Source: a bacterium
Lineage (GTDB): Bacteria; Patescibacteriota; Saccharimonadia; Saccharimonadales; SZUA-47
DNA: 64,000 nucleotides
Assembly (NCBI GenBank): GCA_030427365.1
Contig: JAUHWW010000002.1
Location: 48-64,047, forward strand
Direction of reading: 5' to 3'
The notes beneath the pieces are model-generated. The model saw only the letters and a program-made list of their open reading frames with translations, was not told the DNA's origin and ran no database searches. This document shows, one piece after another, positions 12,879 through 58,738 of the stretch. Within the stretch, counting starts at the first letter, position 1, and each line of letters starts with the position of its first letter. The translations under genes were made by a program, and so were the position numbers.

Positions 12879-12951
12879 AGGGCCCACCGGGGGAGTGACC
12901 TAAATAATCTGCGCGCCGAGCAGGACTCGGGCGACAGACTATTTAGCGAAC
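12879..12951 (-). repeat. tRNA-Lys 3'-end duplicate (14 nt) fused to palindromic module Z
   Basis: 12879-12892 is identical to 13024-13037 (the tRNA-Lys acceptor/T-stem 3' strand). 12893-12951 is the reverse complement of 56344-56396, with the same 12-nt inverted termini CTAAATAGTCTG/CAGATTATTTAG. Confidence 0.75.
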
Positions 12952-13020
12952 CGCGGCCCGTGTTCAAAATCTCAAGTGAGATTCTCCAAAATAAAAACTC
13001 CCAAACGGGAGCTCTCATTT

Positions 13021-13096
13021 TGGAGGGCCCACCGGGGCTCGAACCCGGGACACACGGCTTAAAAGGCCGTTGCTCTACCAACTGAGCTATAGGCCC
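13021..13096 (-). tRNA. tRNA-Lys (anticodon UUU), CCA encoded
   Basis: Hand-folded cloverleaf: GGGCCTA/TGGGCCC acceptor, GCTC/GAGC D stem, ACGGC-CTTTTAA-GCCGT anticodon arm, CCGGG-TTCGAGC-CCCGG T arm. 76 nt. Confidence 0.95.
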
Positions 13097-52267: not shown

Positions 52268-52702
52268 TTATTTTGTTTTCTTTTTCACAGCTATCTTTTT
52301 CGGCTTTGGAAGTTCTTTAAATGGAACCGTAACTTTCAGGACGCCGTCTTCCATATGAGCGGAGACTGCATCTTGGTCAGCGTGCTTCGGCAAACGAACG
52401 CTGCGATAAAAGCTGCTTGACGACTCCCGCACAACATACTTTTTCTTTTTATCCTCTTCCTTTTCGTGTTTCTCAGCACGAATGACCAAATTGCCATTGT
52501 CGACGTGAACATCTATATCCTTTTCTTCAAAATTAGGCATGTGCGCCTCTACGACGAGCTCTTTGTCCTCGTTCGTGTAAACGTCGGTTGTGGGCAAAGC
52601 AAGCGTACTCGCGCTACTAAGACCCCACTCATCACCAAAGAATTGCTTTTGCAATGCTCGCATCTCTGCAAAAGGATCCCATCTTTGCAAACCGTTACTC
52701 AT
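52268..52702 (-). CDS. small heat shock protein (Hsp20/alpha-crystallin)
   Basis: 144 aa. Alpha-crystallin domain (DVYTNEDKELVVEAHMPN...GVLKVTVP). Confidence 0.93.
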   Translation of the reverse strand: MSNGLQRWDPFAEMRALQKQFFGDEWGLSSASTLALPTTDVYTNEDKELVVEAHMPNFEEKDIDVHVDNGNLVIRAEKHEKEEDKKKKYVVRESSSSFYRSVRLPKHADQDAVSAHMEDGVLKVTVPFKELPKPKKIAVKKKTK

Positions 52703-52860: not shown

Positions 52861-52935
52861 CGCGGGGTGGAGCAGCGGCAGCTCGCGTGGCTCATAACCA
52901 CGAGGTCGCAGGTTCGAGTCCTGCCCCCGCTACCA
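52861..52935 (+). tRNA. tRNA-CAU, initiator-like (fMet), CCA encoded
   Basis: 75-nt cloverleaf. C1 is unpaired with position 72, and A11:U24 sits in the D stem (GAGC/GCTC); both are initiator hallmarks. CTCATAA loop, GCAGG-TTCGAGT-CCTGC T arm. Confidence 0.92.
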
Positions 52936-52948
52936 AGTGAAACTTTGG

Positions 52949-52971
52949 AACCATCCTCCGGGATGGTTTTT
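52949..52971 (+). terminator. intrinsic terminator after the tRNA-fMet
   Basis: AACCATCC-TCCG-GGATGGTT followed by TTTTTAAG. Confidence 0.7.
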
Positions 52972-52999
52972 AAGTTTCGCTTAGTTTCGGCGAGCAGTG

Positions 53000-53088
53000 C
53001 TCGAGCCAAAAAGGTTCGCACAACAGTCACAGCCCCCAGCGATAGCGGGCGGCTGGATTGGAGTGGTCACTCTTCCTGCCCCCGCTAC
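53000..53088 (+). repeat. repeat unit A: module Y plus an exact 15-nt copy of the tRNA-fMet 3' end
   Basis: 53000-53019 is identical to 54493-54512 (CTCGAGCCAAAAAGGTTCGC). 53074-53088 is identical to 52919-52933 (TCCTGCCCCCGCTAC). Followed by its own hairpin plus T6 at 53099-53122. Confidence 0.8.
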
Positions 53089-53255
53089 TACGACAAGAGT
53101 CCATCGCAAGATGGGCTTTTTTCGTGTTACTGAGACAGGCTCCAGCTAGCGACCTCGCGAGGTCGGAGGTGAGAAATGCCAGCGGCATTTCGGAAACGAA
53201 TCTTCTCTTGCAAACTTGTTTGCAAAGATGAAGTTCGGGGGTCGCCGAAGGTGAC

Positions 53256-53267
53256 CGAGTCCTGCCC
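53256..53267 (+). repeat. second partial copy of the tRNA-fMet T-arm
   Basis: CGAGTCCTGCCC is identical to 52915-52926. Preceded by a variable-loop-like GAAGGTGAC. Confidence 0.55.
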
Positions 53268-53333
53268 TTCTTCTTGAAGCTTATCTCGCTACTGCTTGTG
53301 AACTGATAAGGATAATGAGAACATACATCCATT

Positions 53334-54362
53334 ATGCAAATGATTGAGTTAAATCCCGAAGTTTCTATTTCACGATTGGGCTTGGGGACGTACCACTTAA
53401 CCGACCGATTGTCTGAGATTGATGCGATTGAAGCATTGCGTGCTGCAGAACACGCAGGAATTACATTAATCGATACTTCTAACAACTACCGTAGTGAAGC
53501 AGTTATTGGGCTCGCGCTGCGAGATGGCGTTTTACACGAAGCCGACACGTTTATCGCGACAAAAGCAGGATTGGCAATTACATGGCCGCAGCATCAAAAG
53601 CTGCGTACACAAGGCAGGACTGCTGACAGCACTCCTGAATACTTACGCTCTAGTGTCGATGGGAGCATTAGTGTACTTGGAGTGAAAGCGCTTGACCTGT
53701 TCCAACTACATGACATCGACGAAACGGTGACTCCTCTCTCGATAGCTTCGACAATGACTGAGCTGGTTGAAAGTGGCAAGGTGCGCCAGTGGGGTGTGAC
53801 GAACTATAGTAAAGAAGCAGTTGATGATCTGCTATCTGCTTGTGACAAGTACGATGCAGTTCGGCCTGCAACGGCGCAACTGCCCCTTGATTTGGTTACT
53901 GGTGTTACGGACGCTGTGCAGATAGCACGCGATGAGGGCATGATTGTACTCGGCAGATCACCGCTTGGGTATGGACTTTTTACGGATTCTGGTATCGATC
54001 AAGCCAGAGACATAATCGAGCAGGCTGATCCAGAAAAGAACATCAAAGACGCACTTTTGATCACATTAGATAAATTAGACGAAATAAGAGACCAAGCACA
54101 CAGCGTCGGAGTTGCTTTTGAAGAACTAGCTCTTGCGTGGGTAATGAGCCACGACCGTACAGCTGTGCTAAACAGCTGCTACTTGCCAGAGTATTTACAG
54201 CGTAGCGTCAGAGCAGAAAGATGGGATGCTCCCCAGGCATTATTTGATACTGCCAATGAACTCCATGAAAATCCATTGTATAGAGAAATGGGCAATCGTC
54301 TTATACGCGTGATGCACAGTACCAGACCGCAGCTGAATCGCTCAGCCCACCCACCGCAGTAA
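53334..54362 (+). CDS. aldo/keto reductase
   Basis: 342 aa. LGLGTY...GITLIDTSNNY...ATK... AKR pattern. Confidence 0.88.
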   Translation: MQMIELNPEVSISRLGLGTYHLTDRLSEIDAIEALRAAEHAGITLIDTSNNYRSEAVIGLALRDGVLHEADTFIATKAGLAITWPQHQKLRTQGRTADSTPEYLRSSVDGSISVLGVKALDLFQLHDIDETVTPLSIASTMTELVESGKVRQWGVTNYSKEAVDDLLSACDKYDAVRPATAQLPLDLVTGVTDAVQIARDEGMIVLGRSPLGYGLFTDSGIDQARDIIEQADPEKNIKDALLITLDKLDEIRDQAHSVGVAFEELALAWVMSHDRTAVLNSCYLPEYLQRSVRAERWDAPQALFDTANELHENPLYREMGNRLIRVMHSTRPQLNRSAHPPQ

Positions 54363-54387
54363 TAATTATTGCGTAGTCTTGCACAAA

Positions 54388-54476
54388 ATAGCACCTATAG
54401 AAGGCAGTCTTATGTATCCCCCAGGGCGAACCCGCTACCAAGAAAACAGACTCAGCAACCTGCTGGGTCTTTTTTC
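54388..54476 (+). pseudogene. degenerate tRNA-CAU-like pseudogene plus a copied terminator (paralog of the 39.3 kb tRNA locus)
   Basis: ATAGCACCTATAGAAGGCAGTCTTATGTA... aligns to the D and anticodon arms of the tRNA at 39363-39439. GCTACCAAGAAAACAGACTCAGCAACCTGCTGGGTCTTTTTT parallels that tRNA's 3' end and terminator (GCTACCAAGAAAAATGACTCACATCTGTGGGTCTTTTTT). Confidence 0.65.
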
Positions 54477-54492
54477 TTTGTCGGAGACTAGA

Positions 54493-54682
54493 CTCGAGCC
54501 AAAAAGGTTCGCTATTCCCCCCGCAAAGCGTTGCTTTACGGACGGGCGGATTACATTCATAGCTCCTGCCACGGTCTTACTTGAAACATGTTTCAAATCA
54601 GCCGTCGCCACATCTCAACTCGGCCAGGGCCGGGTTTCCGATCTTGCAGAATTTCACTGAACTTCCTCACCCCGCTACCAAG
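54493..54682 (+). repeat. repeat unit B: module Y, a perfect 16-bp palindrome, and a tRNA-fMet 3'-end copy
   Basis: 54493-54512 equals 53000-53019. TTGAAACATGTTTCAA lies at 54581-54596. 54663-54682 matches tRNA 52918-52937 at 17 of 20 positions, including CCAAG. Confidence 0.75.
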
Positions 54683-54718
54683 CATAAGCATTTTGAAATC
54701 CGTAAACTGGTGTCATTT

Positions 54719-55516
54719 TTATTGAAGAAATTGATTTGTTGCTTCGGCTACCCAAGCGTATTTATCGGCAACAAAATCAAGAGGCTGGCCGTCACGATAT
54801 AGCTGCTTGTCAACCATCTGATTTGAATCACCGCCTGGCCATATACGCCACGAATCATTATCGATTACATCCGCTACTACAAATCCATTGGGTGTTCTAC
54901 CGCATTCGATTTTCATATCGACCAAAGTTACGTCCTGCTCTGCCCAGGCGGCTTCAATAACTTCAAATGTGGCTACAGAAAGATCGCGTAATTGACTAAT
55001 TTCGTGGTCACGTAGGCCAAACGGAGACTGAACGATATTTTGTTGATCGATAAGTGATGGTTCGTCTATTGGCTGTTTTGGATGGTAACGAAAAACCATG
55101 TCGCAGGAGTAATCTAGATACGGGTCATGATTTTCGTCATCTTTAGCGAACATTTCGAATAAAGGTGGTTCAAATCTGGCTCCTTCTGCCACGCCAGGGT
55201 TTCGTTTTAGGTACGATCCGTATGCTAATCTTCTAGTCACTAATTCAATTGGCACCATGTCTACTCTCAGCGCACGAAACACAACATCGCTTCCAGCTAG
55301 TCGACCTTGATAGTGCGTAGGGATTCCATTTCTTTCCAGTAGTTCAAAGCAGTTAGATGTTGTTTGTGTTGCAAGAGCTGCCTTGCCCTCGATTTGATCA
55401 CGTCTAGCCCCATCACCTGCTGTTATATCATCCTTGCTCTCTATTAGTACCGTTGGTTCTTCTGCATATATTCTTTTTGTTTTGCCTTCAGCAATTACCT
55501 CGCCGGATACTATCAT
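54719..55516 (-). CDS. purC: SAICAR synthetase PurC
   Basis: 265 aa. GKTKRIY N-terminal motif and SAICAR_synt-like layout. Confidence 0.88.
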   Translation of the reverse strand: MIVSGEVIAEGKTKRIYAEEPTVLIESKDDITAGDGARRDQIEGKAALATQTTSNCFELLERNGIPTHYQGRLAGSDVVFRALRVDMVPIELVTRRLAYGSYLKRNPGVAEGARFEPPLFEMFAKDDENHDPYLDYSCDMVFRYHPKQPIDEPSLIDQQNIVQSPFGLRDHEISQLRDLSVATFEVIEAAWAEQDVTLVDMKIECGRTPNGFVVADVIDNDSWRIWPGGDSNQMVDKQLYRDGQPLDFVADKYAWVAEATNQFLQ

Positions 55517-55615
55517 ACTAACTTCCCCATTACATAAATCTAGGATATGCTAGTTATACAAAACAAACAAGTTAAGCAAACTAGTATCAAATGCCTAATC
55601 CTAATGGGAGACACA

Positions 55616-56155
55616 ATGACTAAACAAGCCGAACAAGAGCCAATTGTAGGAGTAATTATGGGTTCTGACTCAGACTTGAAAACCATGAAGCCAGCCTCAG
55701 ATATATTGCACCTGTTTGGTGTGCCGCACGAAGTAAGAGTGAAATCTGCGCATAGAACGCCCGAGATGATGGCAGAATATGGTAGAACTGCATTAGATAG
55801 AGGAATAAAAGTAATAATAGCAGGAGCAGGCGGATCTGCTCACCTGCCTGGCATGGTAGCTTCTGAGACTAGGCTTCCGGTGCTTGGTGTAGCTATCGAA
55901 AGTTCTGCGGATGTTACAAATGCCGCCCTAGGCTCAATGATAAGAATGCCAAAGGGCATTCCACTCGCTACAATGGGCAAAGGTGAAGCGGCTGCGGCAA
56001 ATGCAGGATTAGAGGCAGTTAGAATATTAGCCTTAAGTGACGATCAGTTAGGACAAGCATACGAGAATTACGTCGAGAGGATGGCCGCAGAAGTCATGGC
56101 GAAGGATCAAAGGCTAGTAGAGTTAGGCGTAGATACATACTTGCAGCAAATGTAG
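55616..56155 (+). CDS. purE: AIR carboxylase / N5-CAIR mutase PurE
   Basis: VGVIMGSDSDL, SAHRTP, AGGSAHLPGMVAS motifs. Start at MTKQAEQ behind GGAGA. Confidence 0.93.
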   Translation: MTKQAEQEPIVGVIMGSDSDLKTMKPASDILHLFGVPHEVRVKSAHRTPEMMAEYGRTALDRGIKVIIAGAGGSAHLPGMVASETRLPVLGVAIESSADVTNAALGSMIRMPKGIPLATMGKGEAAAANAGLEAVRILALSDDQLGQAYENYVERMAAEVMAKDQRLVELGVDTYLQQM

Positions 56156-56206
56156 TTCCACTCCCAGCTGCTAGTCCAAGTCATATCTTTTGCAATCCCT
56201 AGAATA

Positions 56207-56301
56207 GCTTTCCATCTGTTAAGCTATTTTGCAGATTAGGTTCCAATCCGATTTCAAACGCGCTACCAAGAATAAAAGCTCAGGATTTATCCTGGGCTTT
56301 T
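56207..56301 (+). repeat. tRNA-pseudogene-like direct repeat C1 with copied terminator
   Basis: 56207-56267 aligns with 58140-58198 at about 48 of 61 columns by hand. A D-arm-like GCTT...AAGC and a T-arm-like GGTTCCAATCC end in CGCTACCAAG. The terminator GCTCAGG-ATTTAT-CCTGGGC-TTTT is homologous to those at 39331-39354 and 54448-54476. Confidence 0.7.
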
Positions 56302-56343
56302 GTTCTTGATGACCGAAGGTCGTGACTCGTACCTTCGCGCAGT

Positions 56344-56429
56344 GTTCGCTAAATAGTCTGTTGCCCGATTCGGCGCACAGATTATTTAGGACACTCGTCC
56401 TCCCACACTTCCAAGCATAAGCTATTTGA
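56344..56429 (+). repeat. palindromic module Z followed by a tRNA 3'-end/trailer-like fragment C2
   Basis: 56344-56396 matches the reverse complement of 12893-12951. 56398-56429 (TCCTCCCACACTTCCAAGCATAAGCTATTTGA) is homologous to 54664-54697. Confidence 0.7.
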
Positions 56430-56493
56430 CCATATAAGCATCTTGATGATGTAGCATCTCATTCAAAAGGGTTGGTGCGGTATACTATTCTTG

Positions 56494-57945
56494 ATGAGCT
56501 ATGACCACAAAGAATTGACTGCCCTAGTCGATGAGCTTAGAAATCTAGGCTCAGAACAAGAGTGGATTGAGTTCAAGAAAGATAATTTCCAGCCAGATGT
56601 AATCGGGCAAGCCATTTCAGCCCTTTCGAACGCTGCAGCATTACACGGTAAGGACAAGGCTTACCTAGTTTATGGCATAAAAGATGACACTCACGAAGTG
56701 ATAGGCACTATATTTGACCTCGCGAAGGAACGCGTTGGAGCCGAGGAGCTTGAAAACTGGCTAAATAAGATGCTCGACCCCAAGATAAACTTTATTTGTC
56801 ATGAGTTTGAGTACGTACCGGGAACTAAAGTTGTAGTGATAGAGATAGATGCCGCCTCATCTTACCCAGTCAGCTTCAAGAAAGCATGTTACATTCGTGT
56901 TGGTAGCTACACGAAACCAATCTCAGCCCACCGTGGAAAAGAAAAAGCACTCTGGAGCAAGCTTGAAAAGAAAACTTTTGAGCTCGAGCTGGCAAAAACA
57001 AACCTCAGCAATGACGAGGTGCTTACACTACTAGATTACAATGAGGCCTTCAAAAAGCTCGGCATTCGCCTGCCAGATGACAAGTCTAGCATTATAGAAA
57101 AACTCATTGAAAATGAACTCGTAACTAAGTCCAAAGGTCGGCTAGCCATTACAAACCTGGGGGCGGTGCTGTTTGCAGTCGATCTGACAAAGTTTGATGG
57201 TTTAGCAAGACGTGCAGTACGTGTAGTCAAGTACGATGGTAAGGACAAGCTCGAGACCGAGCGAGAGTTTCGTGGCAAAAAAGGCTATGCGTTAGGTGTT
57301 GACAATATTGTCAGCCTTATAGCTACAATAACCCCGGCAGAGGAGGTTATGGAAGGTGCTTCACTAATAAAAAAGTTTGCATACCCTCAACGTGCAGTAC
57401 GTGAGCTAGTCGCCAACGCATTAATCCACCAAGACTTTAGCATTGGTGGTGCTGGCCCAATGATAGAAATCTTTGACAACCGAGTTGAAATATCAAACCC
57501 AGGTACGCCACTAGTTGATGTACAAAGAATCATTGACCATAGCCCGAGGAGTAGAAATGAAAAGCTTGCTGGCACAATGGCCAGAATGGGTATTTGTGAA
57601 GAACGTGGCAGTGGTGTAGATAAGGTTGTTATTGAGTGTGAGATGAGCCAGTTACCGGCTCCCGAATTCATCGTTGAAGATGATTTTACACGTACGAAAC
57701 TATTCGCTTATAGAACACTTAGAGACATGACGAGGGAAGATAAAATACGAGCTACCTACTATCATGCTGTAATTAAATACATTACTGATGGTTATATGGA
57801 AAACAATACACTCCGGGAACGTTTCGGTATTGCCAAGGAAAACTATCCCACTGCTTCCAACATTATCAGACTAGCTTTAGACGCAGGTGCCATTAAGACA
57901 CGTGACTCAGATACCGCGACAAAGTACGTGCCGTTTTGGGCGTAA
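56494..57945 (+). CDS. Schlafen/AlbA_2 domain plus HATPase_c_4 plus wHTH protein (COG2865-like)
   Basis: About 483 aa. N-terminal AlbA_2-like EWIEFKKD...YLVYGI. Central RELVANALIHQDF...IEIFDNRVEISNPG. C-terminal HTH-like region. The track ORF starts at TTG 56491. TATACT at 56481-56486 lies 7 nt before the ATG, so the mRNA may be leaderless. Confidence 0.85.
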   Translation: MSYDHKELTALVDELRNLGSEQEWIEFKKDNFQPDVIGQAISALSNAAALHGKDKAYLVYGIKDDTHEVIGTIFDLAKERVGAEELENWLNKMLDPKINFICHEFEYVPGTKVVVIEIDAASSYPVSFKKACYIRVGSYTKPISAHRGKEKALWSKLEKKTFELELAKTNLSNDEVLTLLDYNEAFKKLGIRLPDDKSSIIEKLIENELVTKSKGRLAITNLGAVLFAVDLTKFDGLARRAVRVVKYDGKDKLETEREFRGKKGYALGVDNIVSLIATITPAEEVMEGASLIKKFAYPQRAVRELVANALIHQDFSIGGAGPMIEIFDNRVEISNPGTPLVDVQRIIDHSPRSRNEKLAGTMARMGICEERGSGVDKVVIECEMSQLPAPEFIVEDDFTRTKLFAYRTLRDMTREDKIRATYYHAVIKYITDGYMENNTLRERFGIAKENYPTASNIIRLALDAGAIKTRDSDTATKYVPFWA

Positions 57946-57948
57946 TCC

Positions 57949-58034
57949 ACATGTAATCGAGCATCGGTATTTCGTACAACAACAATTTTTCACCCCTGTA
58001 AAAAATACTTATACACATGTAATCAACATGTAAT
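57949..58034 (+). repeat. three direct copies of ACATGTAAT
   Basis: Copies at 57949-57958, 58015-58024 and 58026-58034, just downstream of the AlbA_2 gene. Confidence 0.6.
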
Positions 58035-58056
58035 TGGAAGAGGATGGGGTTGCTGA

Positions 58057-58136
58057 GACTGGGAGCCTTTACTGAGAGAGCCGGCAGTTCTAGACCCAGC
58101 TGCCTGTCTCTGTTAACTGGGGTACTGCTCCCAGTC
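58057..58136. other. about 80-nt imperfect long hairpin
   Basis: Outer perfect 10-bp stem GACTGGGAGC/GCTCCCAGTC. Inner AGAGA/TCTCT and GGCAG/CTGCC stems. Confidence 0.55.
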
Positions 58137-58139
58137 ACT

Positions 58140-58198
58140 GCTTCCACCTGTTAAGCTCTTTTGCAGATGAGTTGTAGTTCGATTTTAGACGCGCTACC
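58140..58198 (+). repeat. tRNA-pseudogene-like direct repeat D1 (partner of C1)
   Basis: GCTTCCACCTGTTAAGCTCTTTTGCAGATGAGTTGTAGTTCGATTTTAGACGCGCTACC. Its last bases overlap the ftsB-like stop codon. Confidence 0.7.
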
Positions 58199-58637
58199 CG
58201 CCGAAAAAGAAGTTCATCCAAGCTTCAAAGTTGCGCTGGTAGGCTGGTTTCGTAGACTCAGGCTCAATGGTTTCGCTATCGAGCGGCGTTTTAAGCGCGG
58301 CAAGAGCTGTTTCTTCAGTAATGGTATAGACACGCTCACCTTCGGCAGCAACGCCGTTCACGCGGCGCGCCTTCAGCTCTGCAAATTCCGGCGTTTTATA
58401 GTACTCAATTTCCAGCTCTCGGTTGCGGTTCTGCAGCTCGAGAACGCGGTTTTCTTCTTCTAAAATTGCAATCTTCTCAGTCAGCTCGTAGTTCTGCTGC
58501 ACCACTTTCGCACCGTTGTAAACAACCGCTAATCCAATCAGCCCAAGTAGCAACACGCCAAGCAAGCGGGGGTCGTCTAAGCCCTTTTCGGCCAGCTTAT
58601 TGCGAATGATTTCTATTTTTGTGCGGATAAGATCCAT
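58194..58637 (-). CDS. septum formation initiator (FtsB/DivIC-like)
   Basis: 147 aa. One TM followed by a leucine-zipper-like coiled coil (LTEKIAILEEENRVLELQNRNRELE). Confidence 0.75.
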   Translation of the reverse strand: MDLIRTKIEIIRNKLAEKGLDDPRLLGVLLLGLIGLAVVYNGAKVVQQNYELTEKIAILEEENRVLELQNRNRELEIEYYKTPEFAELKARRVNGVAAEGERVYTITEETALAALKTPLDSETIEPESTKPAYQRNFEAWMNFFFGG

Positions 58638-58662
58638 ACCTGTATTCTAGCAAAAGTGCTTT

Positions 58663-58738
58663 TGGTGGGGGTACCTGGATTTGAACCAGGGACCAATCGG
58701 TTATGAGCCGACTGCTCTAACCCCTGAGCTATACCCCC
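58663..58738 (-). tRNA. tRNA-CAU, elongator type (Ile2-lysidine or Met), CCA encoded
   Basis: 76-nt cloverleaf: GGGGGTA/TACCCCC acceptor, CTCATAA loop, CCTGG-TTCAAAT-CCAGG T arm. The variable and T region resembles E. coli ileX as I recall it. Confidence 0.92.

Follow-up and report, generated by a model that had tools for sequence, protein, structure and literature searches.

Downstream of a tRNA-Met(CAU) gene in the 64-kb window (the whole stretch of DNA analysed, 64,000 nucleotides of a Saccharibacteria genome), short direct repeats of the tRNA 3' end bound three cargo-less modules and three gene cassettes. The cassettes carry an aldo/keto reductase (AKR) gene, purC and purE (purCE), and an AlbA_2/HATPase_c_4 gene. 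We read the array as tRNA-anchored island accretion, integron-like in form, for which the mechanism is a proposal. The 3' end of an initiator-like tRNA has probably served here as an integration hot spot, where repeated site-specific recombination at the core CGCTACCAAG, with a recombinase encoded elsewhere, built the array.

The tRNA anchor and the core repeat

The anchor tRNA (52861-52935, + strand) was called tRNA-Met(CAU) by both ARAGORN and Rfam (tRNA, 60.6 bits), in agreement with the first-pass annotation, and is probably initiator-like because its sequence has a C1-U72 mismatch. The core CGCTACCAAG comprises the last bases of this tRNA plus AG (52928-52937). The core repeats are strand-specific and far above chance: the exact 10-mer occurs four times in the window, on the + strand only and always within 52928-56270, against an expectation of about 0.1 by our own estimate. 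Weaker copies are located at 53074, 53256, 56406 and 58192; of the eight core copies in total, three are weak. Every copy has one orientation and the same end base after CCAAG, and is followed by a terminator-like hairpin. The four best + strand matches to the tRNA, covering tRNA positions 55-77, score 29.5, 25.7, 23.8 and 23.8 bits, whereas the top score in nine other 5.7-kb chunks of the window never exceeds 19.9 bits. The best of these hand-found matches also exceeds the shuffled background (n=100; mean top score 18.7 bits, maximum 27.6). An assembly artefact was ruled out, with contigs of three independent runs 100% identical across 52908-58718.

Most of the fragments listed in the first-pass annotation were recovered as described. 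The 15-mer at 53074-53088 and the 12-mers at 53256-53267 and 54431-54442 are exact, and the related end at 56261-56270 is an exact 10-mer. A claimed 17/20 match at 54663-54682 was found as 17/19 at 54664-54682. The ends placed near 56398-56414 and 58192-58198 correspond to an 8/10 match at 56406-56415 and a 7-mer, each non-significant alone, which are supported because their flanks are homologous. Stem-loops with T-runs, said to follow most fragments, were detected by a scan at 53095-53120 and 54448-54470 and read from the sequence at about 52949-52973 and 56277-56301.

Order and structure of the units

Each unit has its own terminator just after the core; its far end is an arm made of a decayed partial tRNA copy, after which the core recurs. 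A cargo-less module consists of a terminator and a partial tRNA copy whose T-loop carries a hairpin; the three such modules were additional to the earlier description of the array. Cargo-less hairpin modules are always tRNA-proximal, and cargo-bearing units hold one to three genes. Terminator 1 (52937-52977, + strand), directly 3' of the tRNA, was read from the sequence as an inverted repeat, with hairpin AACCATCC/GGATGGTT and a T-run. The cargo-less module X1 (52996-53125, + strand), delimited by repeat, terminator and tRNA-match scans, contains the T-loop-left mimic CTCGAGCCAAAAAGGTTCG, a 55-nt hairpin insert and the tRNA 3' copy TCCTGCCCCCGCTAC (53074-53088), and ends with terminator 2 (53095-53120). 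Its A' element is AGGTTCG and its B element corresponds to tRNA positions 59-75. Module E (53157-53267, + strand; alignment, RNAalifold) is a partial tRNA copy (GAGGTCGgAGGT ... CGAGTCCTGCCC) with a T-loop insert of about 85-95 nt that forms three hairpins. An RNAalifold alignment of this insert with L004, L007 and L019 displays compensatory changes in 19 of 39 pairs; the insert matches no Rfam family, and in L019 it is inverted relative to the tRNA.

The copy in module E is interrupted within the acceptor stem by insertion of the AKR unit (53268-54442, + strand). This unit contains the aldo/keto reductase gene (53334-54362; Pfam PF00248, E = 6e-42), terminates in the exact 12-mer CCCGCTACCAAG (54431-54442) and has no homologue at E <= 1e-20. 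The earlier partition of the region into three cassettes by tRNA fragments is refined here, in that AKR lies within the acceptor-stem copy of a cargo-less module and not between two clean repeats. The cargo identities proposed from translations were borne out by Pfam (Aldo_ket_red, SAICAR_synt, AIRC and SLFN_AlbA_2+HATPase_c_4).

Terminator 3 (54448-54470) and module X2-Z together occupy 54448-54682 (+ strand; repeat and terminator scans). X2-Z has an exact 20-mer, CTCGAGCCAAAAAGGTTCGC, in common with X1, and further comprises a hairpin, the truncated copy TCCTGCC, a 93-nt Z segment and the end TCCTCACCCCGCTACCAAG; a homologous module is present in L007 and in a second strain, S2 (L190/L191). 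The purCE cassette (54683-56270, + strand, 1588 bp; Pfam and junction alignments) starts with CATAAGCATTTTG, a hairpin and a T-run (54683-54718). It continues with purC (54719-55516, - strand; Pfam SAICAR_synt), purE (55547-56155; Pfam AIRC) and a right arm (56156-56260, TTCCATCTGTTAAGCT...AGGTTCCAATCCGATTTCAAACG), and ends in the core CGCTACCAAG (56261-56270). Terminator 4 and module X3 follow (56271-56415, + strand), recognised by sequence comparison with the tRNA-Lys hairpin and S2. X3 contains GTGTTCG, then the hairpin CTAAATAGTCTGT...ACAGATTATTTAG (56349-56389), and ends in the degenerate core CACTTCCAAG. Its hairpin is 83% identical to that after tRNA-Lys (12893-12952), and the tRNA-proximal module of S2 matches terminator 4 with the left part of X3 at 87% identity.

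The AlbA_2 cassette (56416-58198, + strand, 1783 bp; Pfam SLFN_AlbA_2+HATPase_c_4) is composed of the left end CATAAGCTATTTGA, the gene (56494-57945), ACATGTAATCG repeats (57942-58034), a right arm (58086-58191) and the core remnant CGCTACC (58192-58198). Its right arm is 83% identical to 56210-56267, and a 69% homologue in L112 has CAAAGCATAAGC in front of it. The distal anchor (58194-58738, - strand; Pfam PF04977, ARAGORN) consists of a DivIC/FtsB-like gene (58194-58637), whose stop codon overlaps the last core remnant, and a 76-nt tRNA-Met(CAU) (58663-58738), and is syntenic with L002, L004 and L007.

Cassette variation, relatives and recombinase genes

The purCE cassette was found at 97.3% identity in the second strain, in two independent assemblies (L190/L191), with homology to window positions 54673-56275 only and a length of 1588 bp in both strains. 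The 10-mer marks the exact limit of homology at either side, with different neighbours beyond it. Identity between the window and L190/L191 is 21/60 outside the core against 64/70 inside at the left junction, and 23/70 against 69/70 at the right junction, where the partners have only the 10-13-bp core in common. In the second strain purCE is flanked by a 421-bp cassette A and by a cassette C with a 237-aa ORF, with a single core at each joint. Since purCE has other neighbours in a related strain, cassettes move as units. Between strains, identity is about 98% in the non-coding parts of the cassette against 83-90% in the modules around it (72% for the longest flanking alignment, X1 into the tRNA), which fits transfer of purCE as a unit; that purCE as a whole keeps 97% amid such modules implies that it moved recently, with no integrase in cis. 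The first-pass annotation regarded the repeats as scars of site-specific integration bounding recombinase-free cassettes, and the purCE breakpoints at the repeat, together with the differing cargo, support this. The cassette polymorphism at repeat boundaries for which it asked was observed for purC+purE against L190/L191, one of the three cassettes. Strain variants were found for neither AKR nor AlbA_2, and circular junctions and empty sites were not seen either. In the window, the purCE left end appears to combine two left ends of S2, so homologous recombination between 45-nt repeats may explain some rearrangements.

Cassettes have conserved ends of about 45 nt and 110 nt, which directly adjoin the cargo in units of 421 bp, 1588 bp and 1783 bp. 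The left end CATAAGCATTTTG plus hairpin is common to the purCE, A, C and AlbA_2 cassettes. The right arm (TTCCAYCTGTTAAGCT ... AGGTTCC..TCCGATTT) is common to purCE, A and AlbA_2, and for C only the start of the arm is on the contig. Copies of the left ends and of the right arms share 80-90% identity, and L002 and L112 have partial matches. The purCE ends in the window, CCGATTTCAAA and TTTTGAAATCCG, surround a 20-bp centre with its midpoint between CCA and AG. The S2 cassettes show this symmetry only weakly, and the core was read as enclosed by an 11-bp inverted repeat in one cassette only. For large serine recombinases, att sites span some 40-50 bp and are imperfectly symmetric about a central dinucleotide. 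The left and right halves of X modules reassort at GTTCGC, and the inserts of X and N modules keep hairpins while their sequences differ.

The same tRNA, with repeats and unrelated cargo, was found at eight further Saccharibacteria loci representing seven distinct arrays, none with an integrase; L002, L004, L007, L028, L107 and L110 carry other cargo at this tRNA without an integrase. Instead of an identical cassette order in all relatives, which the first-pass annotation had named as counter-evidence, the relatives share the tRNA anchor and their cargo is entirely different. A second instance in the window is tRNA-Lys with a terminator and an X-type module (12880-13096, - strand), composed of GGTTCG, a 54-nt hairpin and the tRNA-Lys 3' copy CCCCGGTGGGCCCT. 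For 48 tRNAs in 728 kb, 20 downstream same-strand 3'-end copies were counted (287 kb) against one control match (917 kb). These copies lie at 16 of the 48 tRNAs, of seven species, and are not specific to tRNA-Met(CAU).

As first reported, the array has no recombinase gene (Pfam, all array ORFs). The search was extended to the scanned ORFs of at least 186 aa in the window (Pfam, NCBIfam) and to 10 kb around any tRNA-fMet array, and none was found. Integrase remnants were absent from all tRNA-fMet arrays by tblastn with both serine recombinases and from the arrays of the window, L002, L004, L007, L028, L107 and L110 by Pfam, and none of the tRNA-fMet arrays holds ICE/IME genes or remnants. The DNA examined yielded neither an Xer gene nor, at the core, a recognisable dif-like dyad. 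About 780 kb was put through crude motif screens, which returned only serine recombinases at tRNA-Asn, the sole location at which large serine recombinases were seen in the phylum. An intact one overlaps the tRNA-Asn 3' end in L046. C-terminal remnants adjoin tRNA-Asn in L114/L115 and in L021, where aa 404-518 of the intact L046 gene are matched at 95% identity; integrase loss therefore does happen in the phylum.

Proposed mechanism, alternatives and known systems

We propose that repeated site-specific recombination at the short core CGCTACCAAG would stack units behind the tRNA. The two joined ends of a circular unit would form an attP of roughly 150 bp, and a recombinase from elsewhere in the genome or from a helper element could insert, excise and reshuffle units. 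Intact large serine recombinases abut tRNA-Asn in relatives, which makes this class of enzyme the leading candidate. The longer conserved ends may in addition undergo homologous recombination, giving deletions and hybrids. More tentatively, Saccharibacteria and perhaps other CPR bacteria might possess integron-like gene capture at tRNA genes, with a docking module, cassettes and a trans or helper recombinase. The docking module would be permanent and follow the tRNA, as a terminator and a tRNA 3' half with the T-loop or anticodon loop replaced by a structured element. Small promoter-independent cassettes would be taken up there, each with compact att ends. If true, gene capture at tRNAs would rank among the main routes of gene flux for these reduced and naturally competent epibionts.

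A stack of decayed islands, whose units came with their own integrase, later lost the genes and are now fixed, is unlikely. Decay followed by accretion is the textbook origin of integrase-less elements (PMC5704250; PMC3146451), and the recombinase remnants at tRNA-Asn in L021 and L114/L115 agree with it. However, no integrase remnant was detected in any tRNA-fMet array, the units are very small with conserved ends directly against the cargo, and the identity of purCE amid more divergent modules implies recent movement. Natural transformation with RecA-dependent recombination between conserved modules might also shuffle units, with no site-specific enzyme at all. The window does encode RecA, RuvA/B and type IV pilus/competence genes, and the repeated ends, the chimeric-looking purCE left end and the reassorting X halves point the same way. 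We consider this account improbable, since efficient RecA exchange needs a longer shared stretch than the core at the right purCE junction offers, all copies have one orientation and the same end base, and the origin of tRNA-specific copies at seven tRNA species is left unaccounted for.

It is very improbable that the repeats are functional tRNA-derived RNA or terminator modules, local duplications kept to punctuate transcription between unrelated genes. Neither the breakpoints of purCE at the core with other neighbours nor the complete cargo difference among relatives would be accounted for, the E insert is inverted in L019, and no promoter was identified. Still, the hairpins after every core copy, the strong covariation in the E insert on the tRNA-sense strand and the hairpins kept in X and N inserts despite differing sequences would suit such a role.

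Site-specific accretion at the tRNA, the reading we prefer, resembles several known systems. Integrons are arrays of one- or two-gene promoter-poor units with a docking site fixed at one end; each unit ends in a recombination site that is conserved more in structure than in sequence, and integrase-less attC clusters occur. The present array likewise has small units, structured end sites, a fixed docking end and no adjacent integrase. It differs in that its sites derive from the tRNA 3' half rather than attC, whose R''/L''/L'/R' boxes fold into an imperfect hairpin, and a terminator starts each unit. An integron has an IntI-type tyrosine recombinase beside the array; none was found in the window, nor in relatives over 10 kb around their arrays. 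IMEX elements and dif modules are tandem integrase-less units bounded by dif-like XerC/XerD binding sites, copies of the host recombination site, and moved by host Xer recombinases; the units of this array would likewise depend on an enzyme encoded elsewhere, but here the target is a tRNA end, with neither dif-like dyad nor Xer gene found.

Tycheposons of Prochlorococcus, 10-20 kb in size, are defined by the recombinase that they encode, tyrosine or large serine, usually together with a replication module (bioRxiv 10.1101/2020.12.28.424599). They are alike in the streamlined genome, the islands beside tRNAs including tRNA-Met, the partial tRNA copies between elements, older insertions pushed outward by newer ones, and much island material without an integrase. 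Here, in contrast, the units are 0.4-2.8 kb without a recombinase, with compact conserved ends and cargo-less structured modules beside the tRNA; Pfam found no element with integrase and replication module in the window or the relatives' arrays. Dehalococcoides ssrA islands span many kb, most of them with a six-gene integration module, and are inserted in the T-loop of tmRNA; the integrase is a serine recombinase, and some islands lack the module and were proposed to be cis-mobilizable (PMC3146451). They too lie in tandem, between 20-bp repeats copied from the tRNA-like gene's 3' end, with an extra conserved motif per repeat.

CIMEs keep attL and attR without integration or transfer genes, in tandem at a tRNA 3' end, and are decay products of ICEs or IMEs that move with an adjacent functional element (PMC5704250). 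Att sites without such genes are also present here (Pfam; purCE junctions), but there is no adjacent functional element or remnant, and the units look purpose-built, not decayed; no trace of an origin by ICE/IME decay was seen, the tRNA-fMet arrays holding no ICE/IME genes or remnants. tDNA-integrating genomic islands in the Islander definition have an intact tRNA, a displaced 3' fragment in direct orientation at the far end and an integrase inside (PMC4383910). Here, no integrase was found inside by Pfam, NCBIfam, motif screens or tblastn, while the intact tRNA and displaced direct 3' fragment are present, and presence/absence polymorphism with ends at the repeats is observed for purCE, one of the three cassettes.

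Organization of the array

The window belongs to a Saccharibacteria (TM7) contig. The array (52861-58198) begins with a tRNA-Met(CAU) gene (52861-52935, + strand, 75 nt), next to an Hsp20 gene (52268-52702, - strand), and ends at a DivIC-like gene (58194-58637, - strand) and a second tRNA-Met (58663-58738, - strand). The anchoring tRNA is probably the initiator, judging from its C1-U72 mismatch and its 75-nt length; two other CAU tRNAs of the window are 76 and 77 nt long. Genes in the array encode an aldo/keto reductase (AKR; 53334-54362, + strand), PurC (54719-55516, - strand), PurE (55547-56155, + strand) and an AlbA_2/HATPase_c_4 protein (56494-57945, + strand). In line with the first-pass annotation, no recombinase or transposase domain was detected in the array region or in the scanned window ORFs of at least 186 aa. 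A composition anomaly was rejected, GC being flat over the region. The array was seen at 100% identity in contigs of three independent sequencing runs. Exact-protein look-ups with Hsp20, DivIC, AKR and AlbA_2 returned no contigs except ones identical to the window, and the homologue search with AKR returned nothing beyond AKR itself.

The 3' end of the anchoring tRNA plus AG forms a 10-mer core, CGCTACCAAG, with four exact copies in 64 kb (52928, 54433, 54673 and 56261), all on the + strand. Every exact tRNA 3'-end match claimed in the first-pass annotation is present in the sequence; among the related ends that it added, the one at 56261 proved to be an exact core, whereas those at 56406 and 58192 would not be convincing by themselves. 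When the tRNA and the 40 nt after it were aligned locally with 52937-58660, four + strand matches of 23.8-29.5 bits emerged, all falling on tRNA positions 55-77, compared with never more than 19.9 bits in nine control chunks of the window and an average top match of 18.7 bits in shuffles. The final core remnant, CGCTACC (58192-58198), overlaps the stop codon of the DivIC-like gene (CTA on the + strand), and thus the end of the AlbA_2 cassette and the end of this gene have bases in common.

Reading the sequence beside its relatives revealed two kinds of unit between the core copies, cargo-less modules and gene cassettes, and a terminator is present after every core copy. Modules X1 (52996-53125), E (53157-53267), X2-Z (54489-54682) and X3 (56302-56415) share one order, in which a terminator directly after the previous core is followed by a short spacer and a partial tRNA copy running from the variable loop or T-stem onward. 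A structured insert, 46-98 nt long, breaks the T-loop of this copy behind GGTTCG or GGT; past the insert, the copy picks up again at the 3' strand of the T-stem and runs through the acceptor strand to CCAAG. A gene cassette is composed of a left end (CATAAG(C/T)ATTTTG, a hairpin and a T-run), the cargo, and a right arm of ~110 nt (GGTTCTAGTCC...TTCCAYCTGTTAAGCT...AGGTTCCnnTCCGATTTnAnACG) with the core next to it; the right arm resembles a degenerate copy of the tRNA that sets in at the anticodon arm. Divided in this way, the purCE cassette occupies 54683-56270 and the AlbA_2 cassette 56416-58198. The AKR unit is without cassette ends and is lodged within the acceptor-stem copy of module E, between 53267 and 54431.

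Three ACATGTAATCG repeats lie 3' of the AlbA_2/HATPase_c_4 gene, at 57942-58034. Similar repeats follow AlbA_2 homologues in four Saccharibacteria comparison loci (L112, L114, L116 and L118), so the repeats move with the gene; their role may be that of an operator or RNA element. The nearest homologue, 69% identical, resides in a different array (L112), with CAAAGCATAAGC ~80 nt upstream of its start.

Simple target-site duplications and arm-type protein-binding sites were rejected as readings of the inserts, which have a diverged copy of a tRNA on their left side but sequence identical to the adjoining tRNA on their right. The E element of ~95 nt (53165-53262) is predicted to form three hairpins closed by the T-stem. 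Further copies are located at L004:16110-16194, L007:9601-9751, L007:16748-16800 and L019:15819-15906, in partial copies beside tRNA-fMet, tRNA-Met(77) and tRNA-Phe, with inverted orientation at tRNA-Phe; on either side of the one in L004 stands a perfect 52-bp repeat that comprises the tRNA 3' end and terminator. Compensatory changes among four genomes affect 19 of the 39 predicted E pairs, and the G-U pairs suit one strand. This covariation indicates that the inserts fold as nucleic acid rather than bind protein, and they could act as folded DNA or RNA. In the X-module alignment 3 of 10 pairs covary, which is too noisy for a covariation claim. Rfam contains no family matching E, and only chance-level matches to the modules; tmRNA, a Y-RNA-like RNA and known ribozymes were considered for E and dropped.

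Probable movement of the purCE cassette and its explanation

Two contigs assembled from other samples, L190 (ENA) and L191 (Logan), encode a PurC protein 99% identical to that of the window; they represent a second strain, S2. Their similarity to the window (97.3% identity) is limited to 54673-56275. On the left of purCE, the strains share 21 of 60 bases outside the core but 64 of 70 on its inner side. On the right, they share 69 of 70 as far as the core end and 23 of 70 past it. Both strains have a cassette of 1588 bp. These counts establish for purCE a cassette polymorphism exactly at the repeat boundaries, as expected from the first-pass annotation of a cassette array. In S2 the order is tRNA, terminator, X-Z module, cassette A (421 bp; ORF of ~85 aa), purCE and cassette C (a 237-aa ORF), with one core between units. 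The tRNA-proximal terminator and X-left half of S2 match window terminator 4 and X3-left (87%), and the X-right half matches window X1 (90%), so modules also reassort at GTTCGC. The non-coding arm of purCE is ~98% identical between the strains, in contrast to 83-90% for the modules around it and 72% for the alignment spanning X1 into the tRNA, a difference that fits recent movement of purCE as a unit. The circular purCE junction, expected as ...CCGATTTCAAACGCGCTACCAAG joined to CATAAGCATTTTGAAATCCG, is absent from the window chromosome; the sequence expected for an empty site after excision is ...CTTCCTCACCCCGCTACCAAG joined to AATAAAAGCTCAGGATTT.

Motif screens of 1505 ORFs in ~780 kb detected no tyrosine recombinase signature and did yield large serine recombinases (Pfam Resolvase+Recombinase+Zn_ribbon_recom), none of them for the tRNA-fMet site. 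In L046 (15197-16786) an intact gene of this kind ends within the 3' end of tRNA-Asn. Only the last 115 codons of an L046-type recombinase are found beside the same tRNA in L021 (14369-14713), and a similar C-terminal remnant adjoins an intron-bearing tRNA-Asn in L114/L115 (L114:7422-7745), just upstream of an AlbA_2 cassette. Therefore the phylum has tRNA-end-specific recombinases, and loss of integrases occurs. A second large serine recombinase type is present in L024 (16745-18040), L034 and L044. Viral contigs were scanned with the L046 recombinase, the right-arm motif, CTACCAAGCATAAGC, the E hairpin and the 3' end of the tRNA; whatever matched was an unrelated phage tRNA, a hairpin arising by chance or a coincidence in coding sequence.

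The reading best supported by these sequence comparisons, and in our opinion a fairly probable one, is that the array was built by successive events of site-specific recombination at the core of the tRNA 3' end, with units that would retain compact att-like ends and depend on a recombinase encoded elsewhere. Its main rival, that each unit formerly carried its own integrase and has since lost it, has a precedent in the tRNA-Asn recombinase remnants; we regard it as unlikely, since no integrase remnant was found in any tRNA-fMet array, the ends are compact and uniform, one unit is only 421 bp, and purCE is highly similar in arrays that have diverged elsewhere. Some of the array changes are certainly due to homologous recombination, and the left end of purCE in the window resembles a hybrid of two S2 left ends. 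Shuffling of the units by this process is nevertheless hard to reconcile with a junction sharing only 10-13 bases, and is a rather improbable account of the array. A role of the modules purely at the RNA level would fit the insert covariation and the terminator after every core, but it leaves the cassette polymorphism unaccounted for and seems very improbable.

Related arrays and other tRNA genes

The closest genome in the species collection, L002, has an Hsp20 86% identical to that of the window and retains Hsp20, the tRNA, DivIC, the second tRNA-Met and FMN reductase. Between these anchors its cargo is a pilin-like protein, two unknown proteins, MarC and an ATP-grasp/FGase protein, likewise separated by CTACCAAG plus terminator. 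Other arrays carry peptidase S51, unknown proteins and a cupredoxin-like protein (L007), a MacB-type ABC transporter (L004), a HAD hydrolase and a virginiamycin B lyase-like protein (L107), or an EamA transporter (L110), and none of these five arrays contains an integrase. The tRNA-adjacent position is taken by a cargo-less module in the window, S2, L002, L004, L007, L028 and L110; in L107 no more than a decayed module remnant is seen at this place. The DivIC metagenome scan gave seven loci, none of them close, but showed the tRNA-Met(76)-DivIC-tRNA-fMet neighbourhood to be ancestral. The closest relatives of Hsp20 are from Saccharibacteria MAGs; it is also 55-68% identical to proteins of Microbacteriaceae (Leifsonia, Agromyces, Lacisediminihabitans) and one Streptomyces. 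These actinobacterial matches are as close as many Saccharibacteria homologues and hint at exchange with actinobacterial hosts.

The last 16 nt of each of 48 tRNAs were searched in the window and 50 Saccharibacteria loci (728 kb). A total of 20 downstream same-strand copies were found in 287 kb, versus one match in control sequence totalling 917 kb. Sixteen of the 48 tRNA genes (fMet, Met, Lys, Phe, Leu, Ser and Asn) have such copies behind them, and all copies found adjoin tRNA genes. Twelve copies lie 110-172 nt downstream and correspond to cargo-less modules. The other eight lie at 0.3-2.8 kb; three of them, at ~0.3 kb, are second cargo-less modules, and those beyond ~0.9 kb enclose gene cargo. 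At least three structured families (X, E and N) occur as inserts. The tRNA-Lys of the window (13021-13096, - strand) is followed by a terminator and an X module with a partial tRNA-Lys copy (12880-13020), whose T-loop contains a hairpin of 54 nt that shares 83% identity with that of X3 (56349-56389) but lies between flanks of tRNA-Lys sequence. In L110, an insert of another family occupies the anticodon loop of a partial tRNA-Met copy. Integrases that target tRNA genes classically cross over in the T-loop or the anticodon loop. Canonical integration sublocations in tRNA genes have been cited and T-loop insertion reported (PMC3146451). Group I introns were detected in the anticodon loops of tRNA-Met(76) (L007:4044-4740; Rfam 76 bits; ORF on the opposite strand) and tRNA-Asn (L114:7046-7455; 89 bits).

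Comparison with known systems

Tycheposon islands (bioRxiv 10.1101/2020.12.28.424599), Dehalococcoides ssrA islands (PMC3146451) and cis-mobilizable elements (PMC5704250) resemble the array in tRNA-anchored island accretion, and an integron array is similar in form. The array departs from each family wherever its definition requires a recombinase in cis, and integron membership was rejected as there is no IntI. No description of such a system in Saccharibacteria or Patescibacteria was found in the literature.

Saccharibacteria have genomes of ~1 Mb with few recognised mobile elements and strain-variable gene content. A cassette system at tRNA ends would account for their gain and loss of accessory genes, such as reductases, transporters, partial purine genes, resistance-like enzymes and defence-like proteins. 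The core, left end and right arm provide precise sequence handles to find such genes in metagenomes, and the structured inserts in partial tRNA copies, present after a third of the sampled tRNAs, are uncatalogued elements. Units moving without an integrase raise the question of a trans-acting recombinase, which is now testable because the phylum has cultivated, transformable members.

Same-strain Logan contigs end within both tRNA-Met genes flanking the array (window 52888-52908 and 58718), and MAG contig L003 likewise terminates at the tRNA; given such breaks, arrays of this type may often be lost or split by assembly. In the window, purC and purE (54719-56155) form an isolated divergent pair, a partial purine pathway as mobile cargo. 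The pair is common across Saccharibacteria and Patescibacteria, and lies beside purK and purM in L194 (7306-11125). After tRNA-Asn in L116 (4718-6560) there are two single-gene units, inositol monophosphatase-like and MliC-like, both finishing with a near-identical arm (ATAATGGCATTATAGTAATCTCGTGTTCTAAATATAT) and then CTAGCCCGCGGAGCCA; this is a second family of cassette ends.
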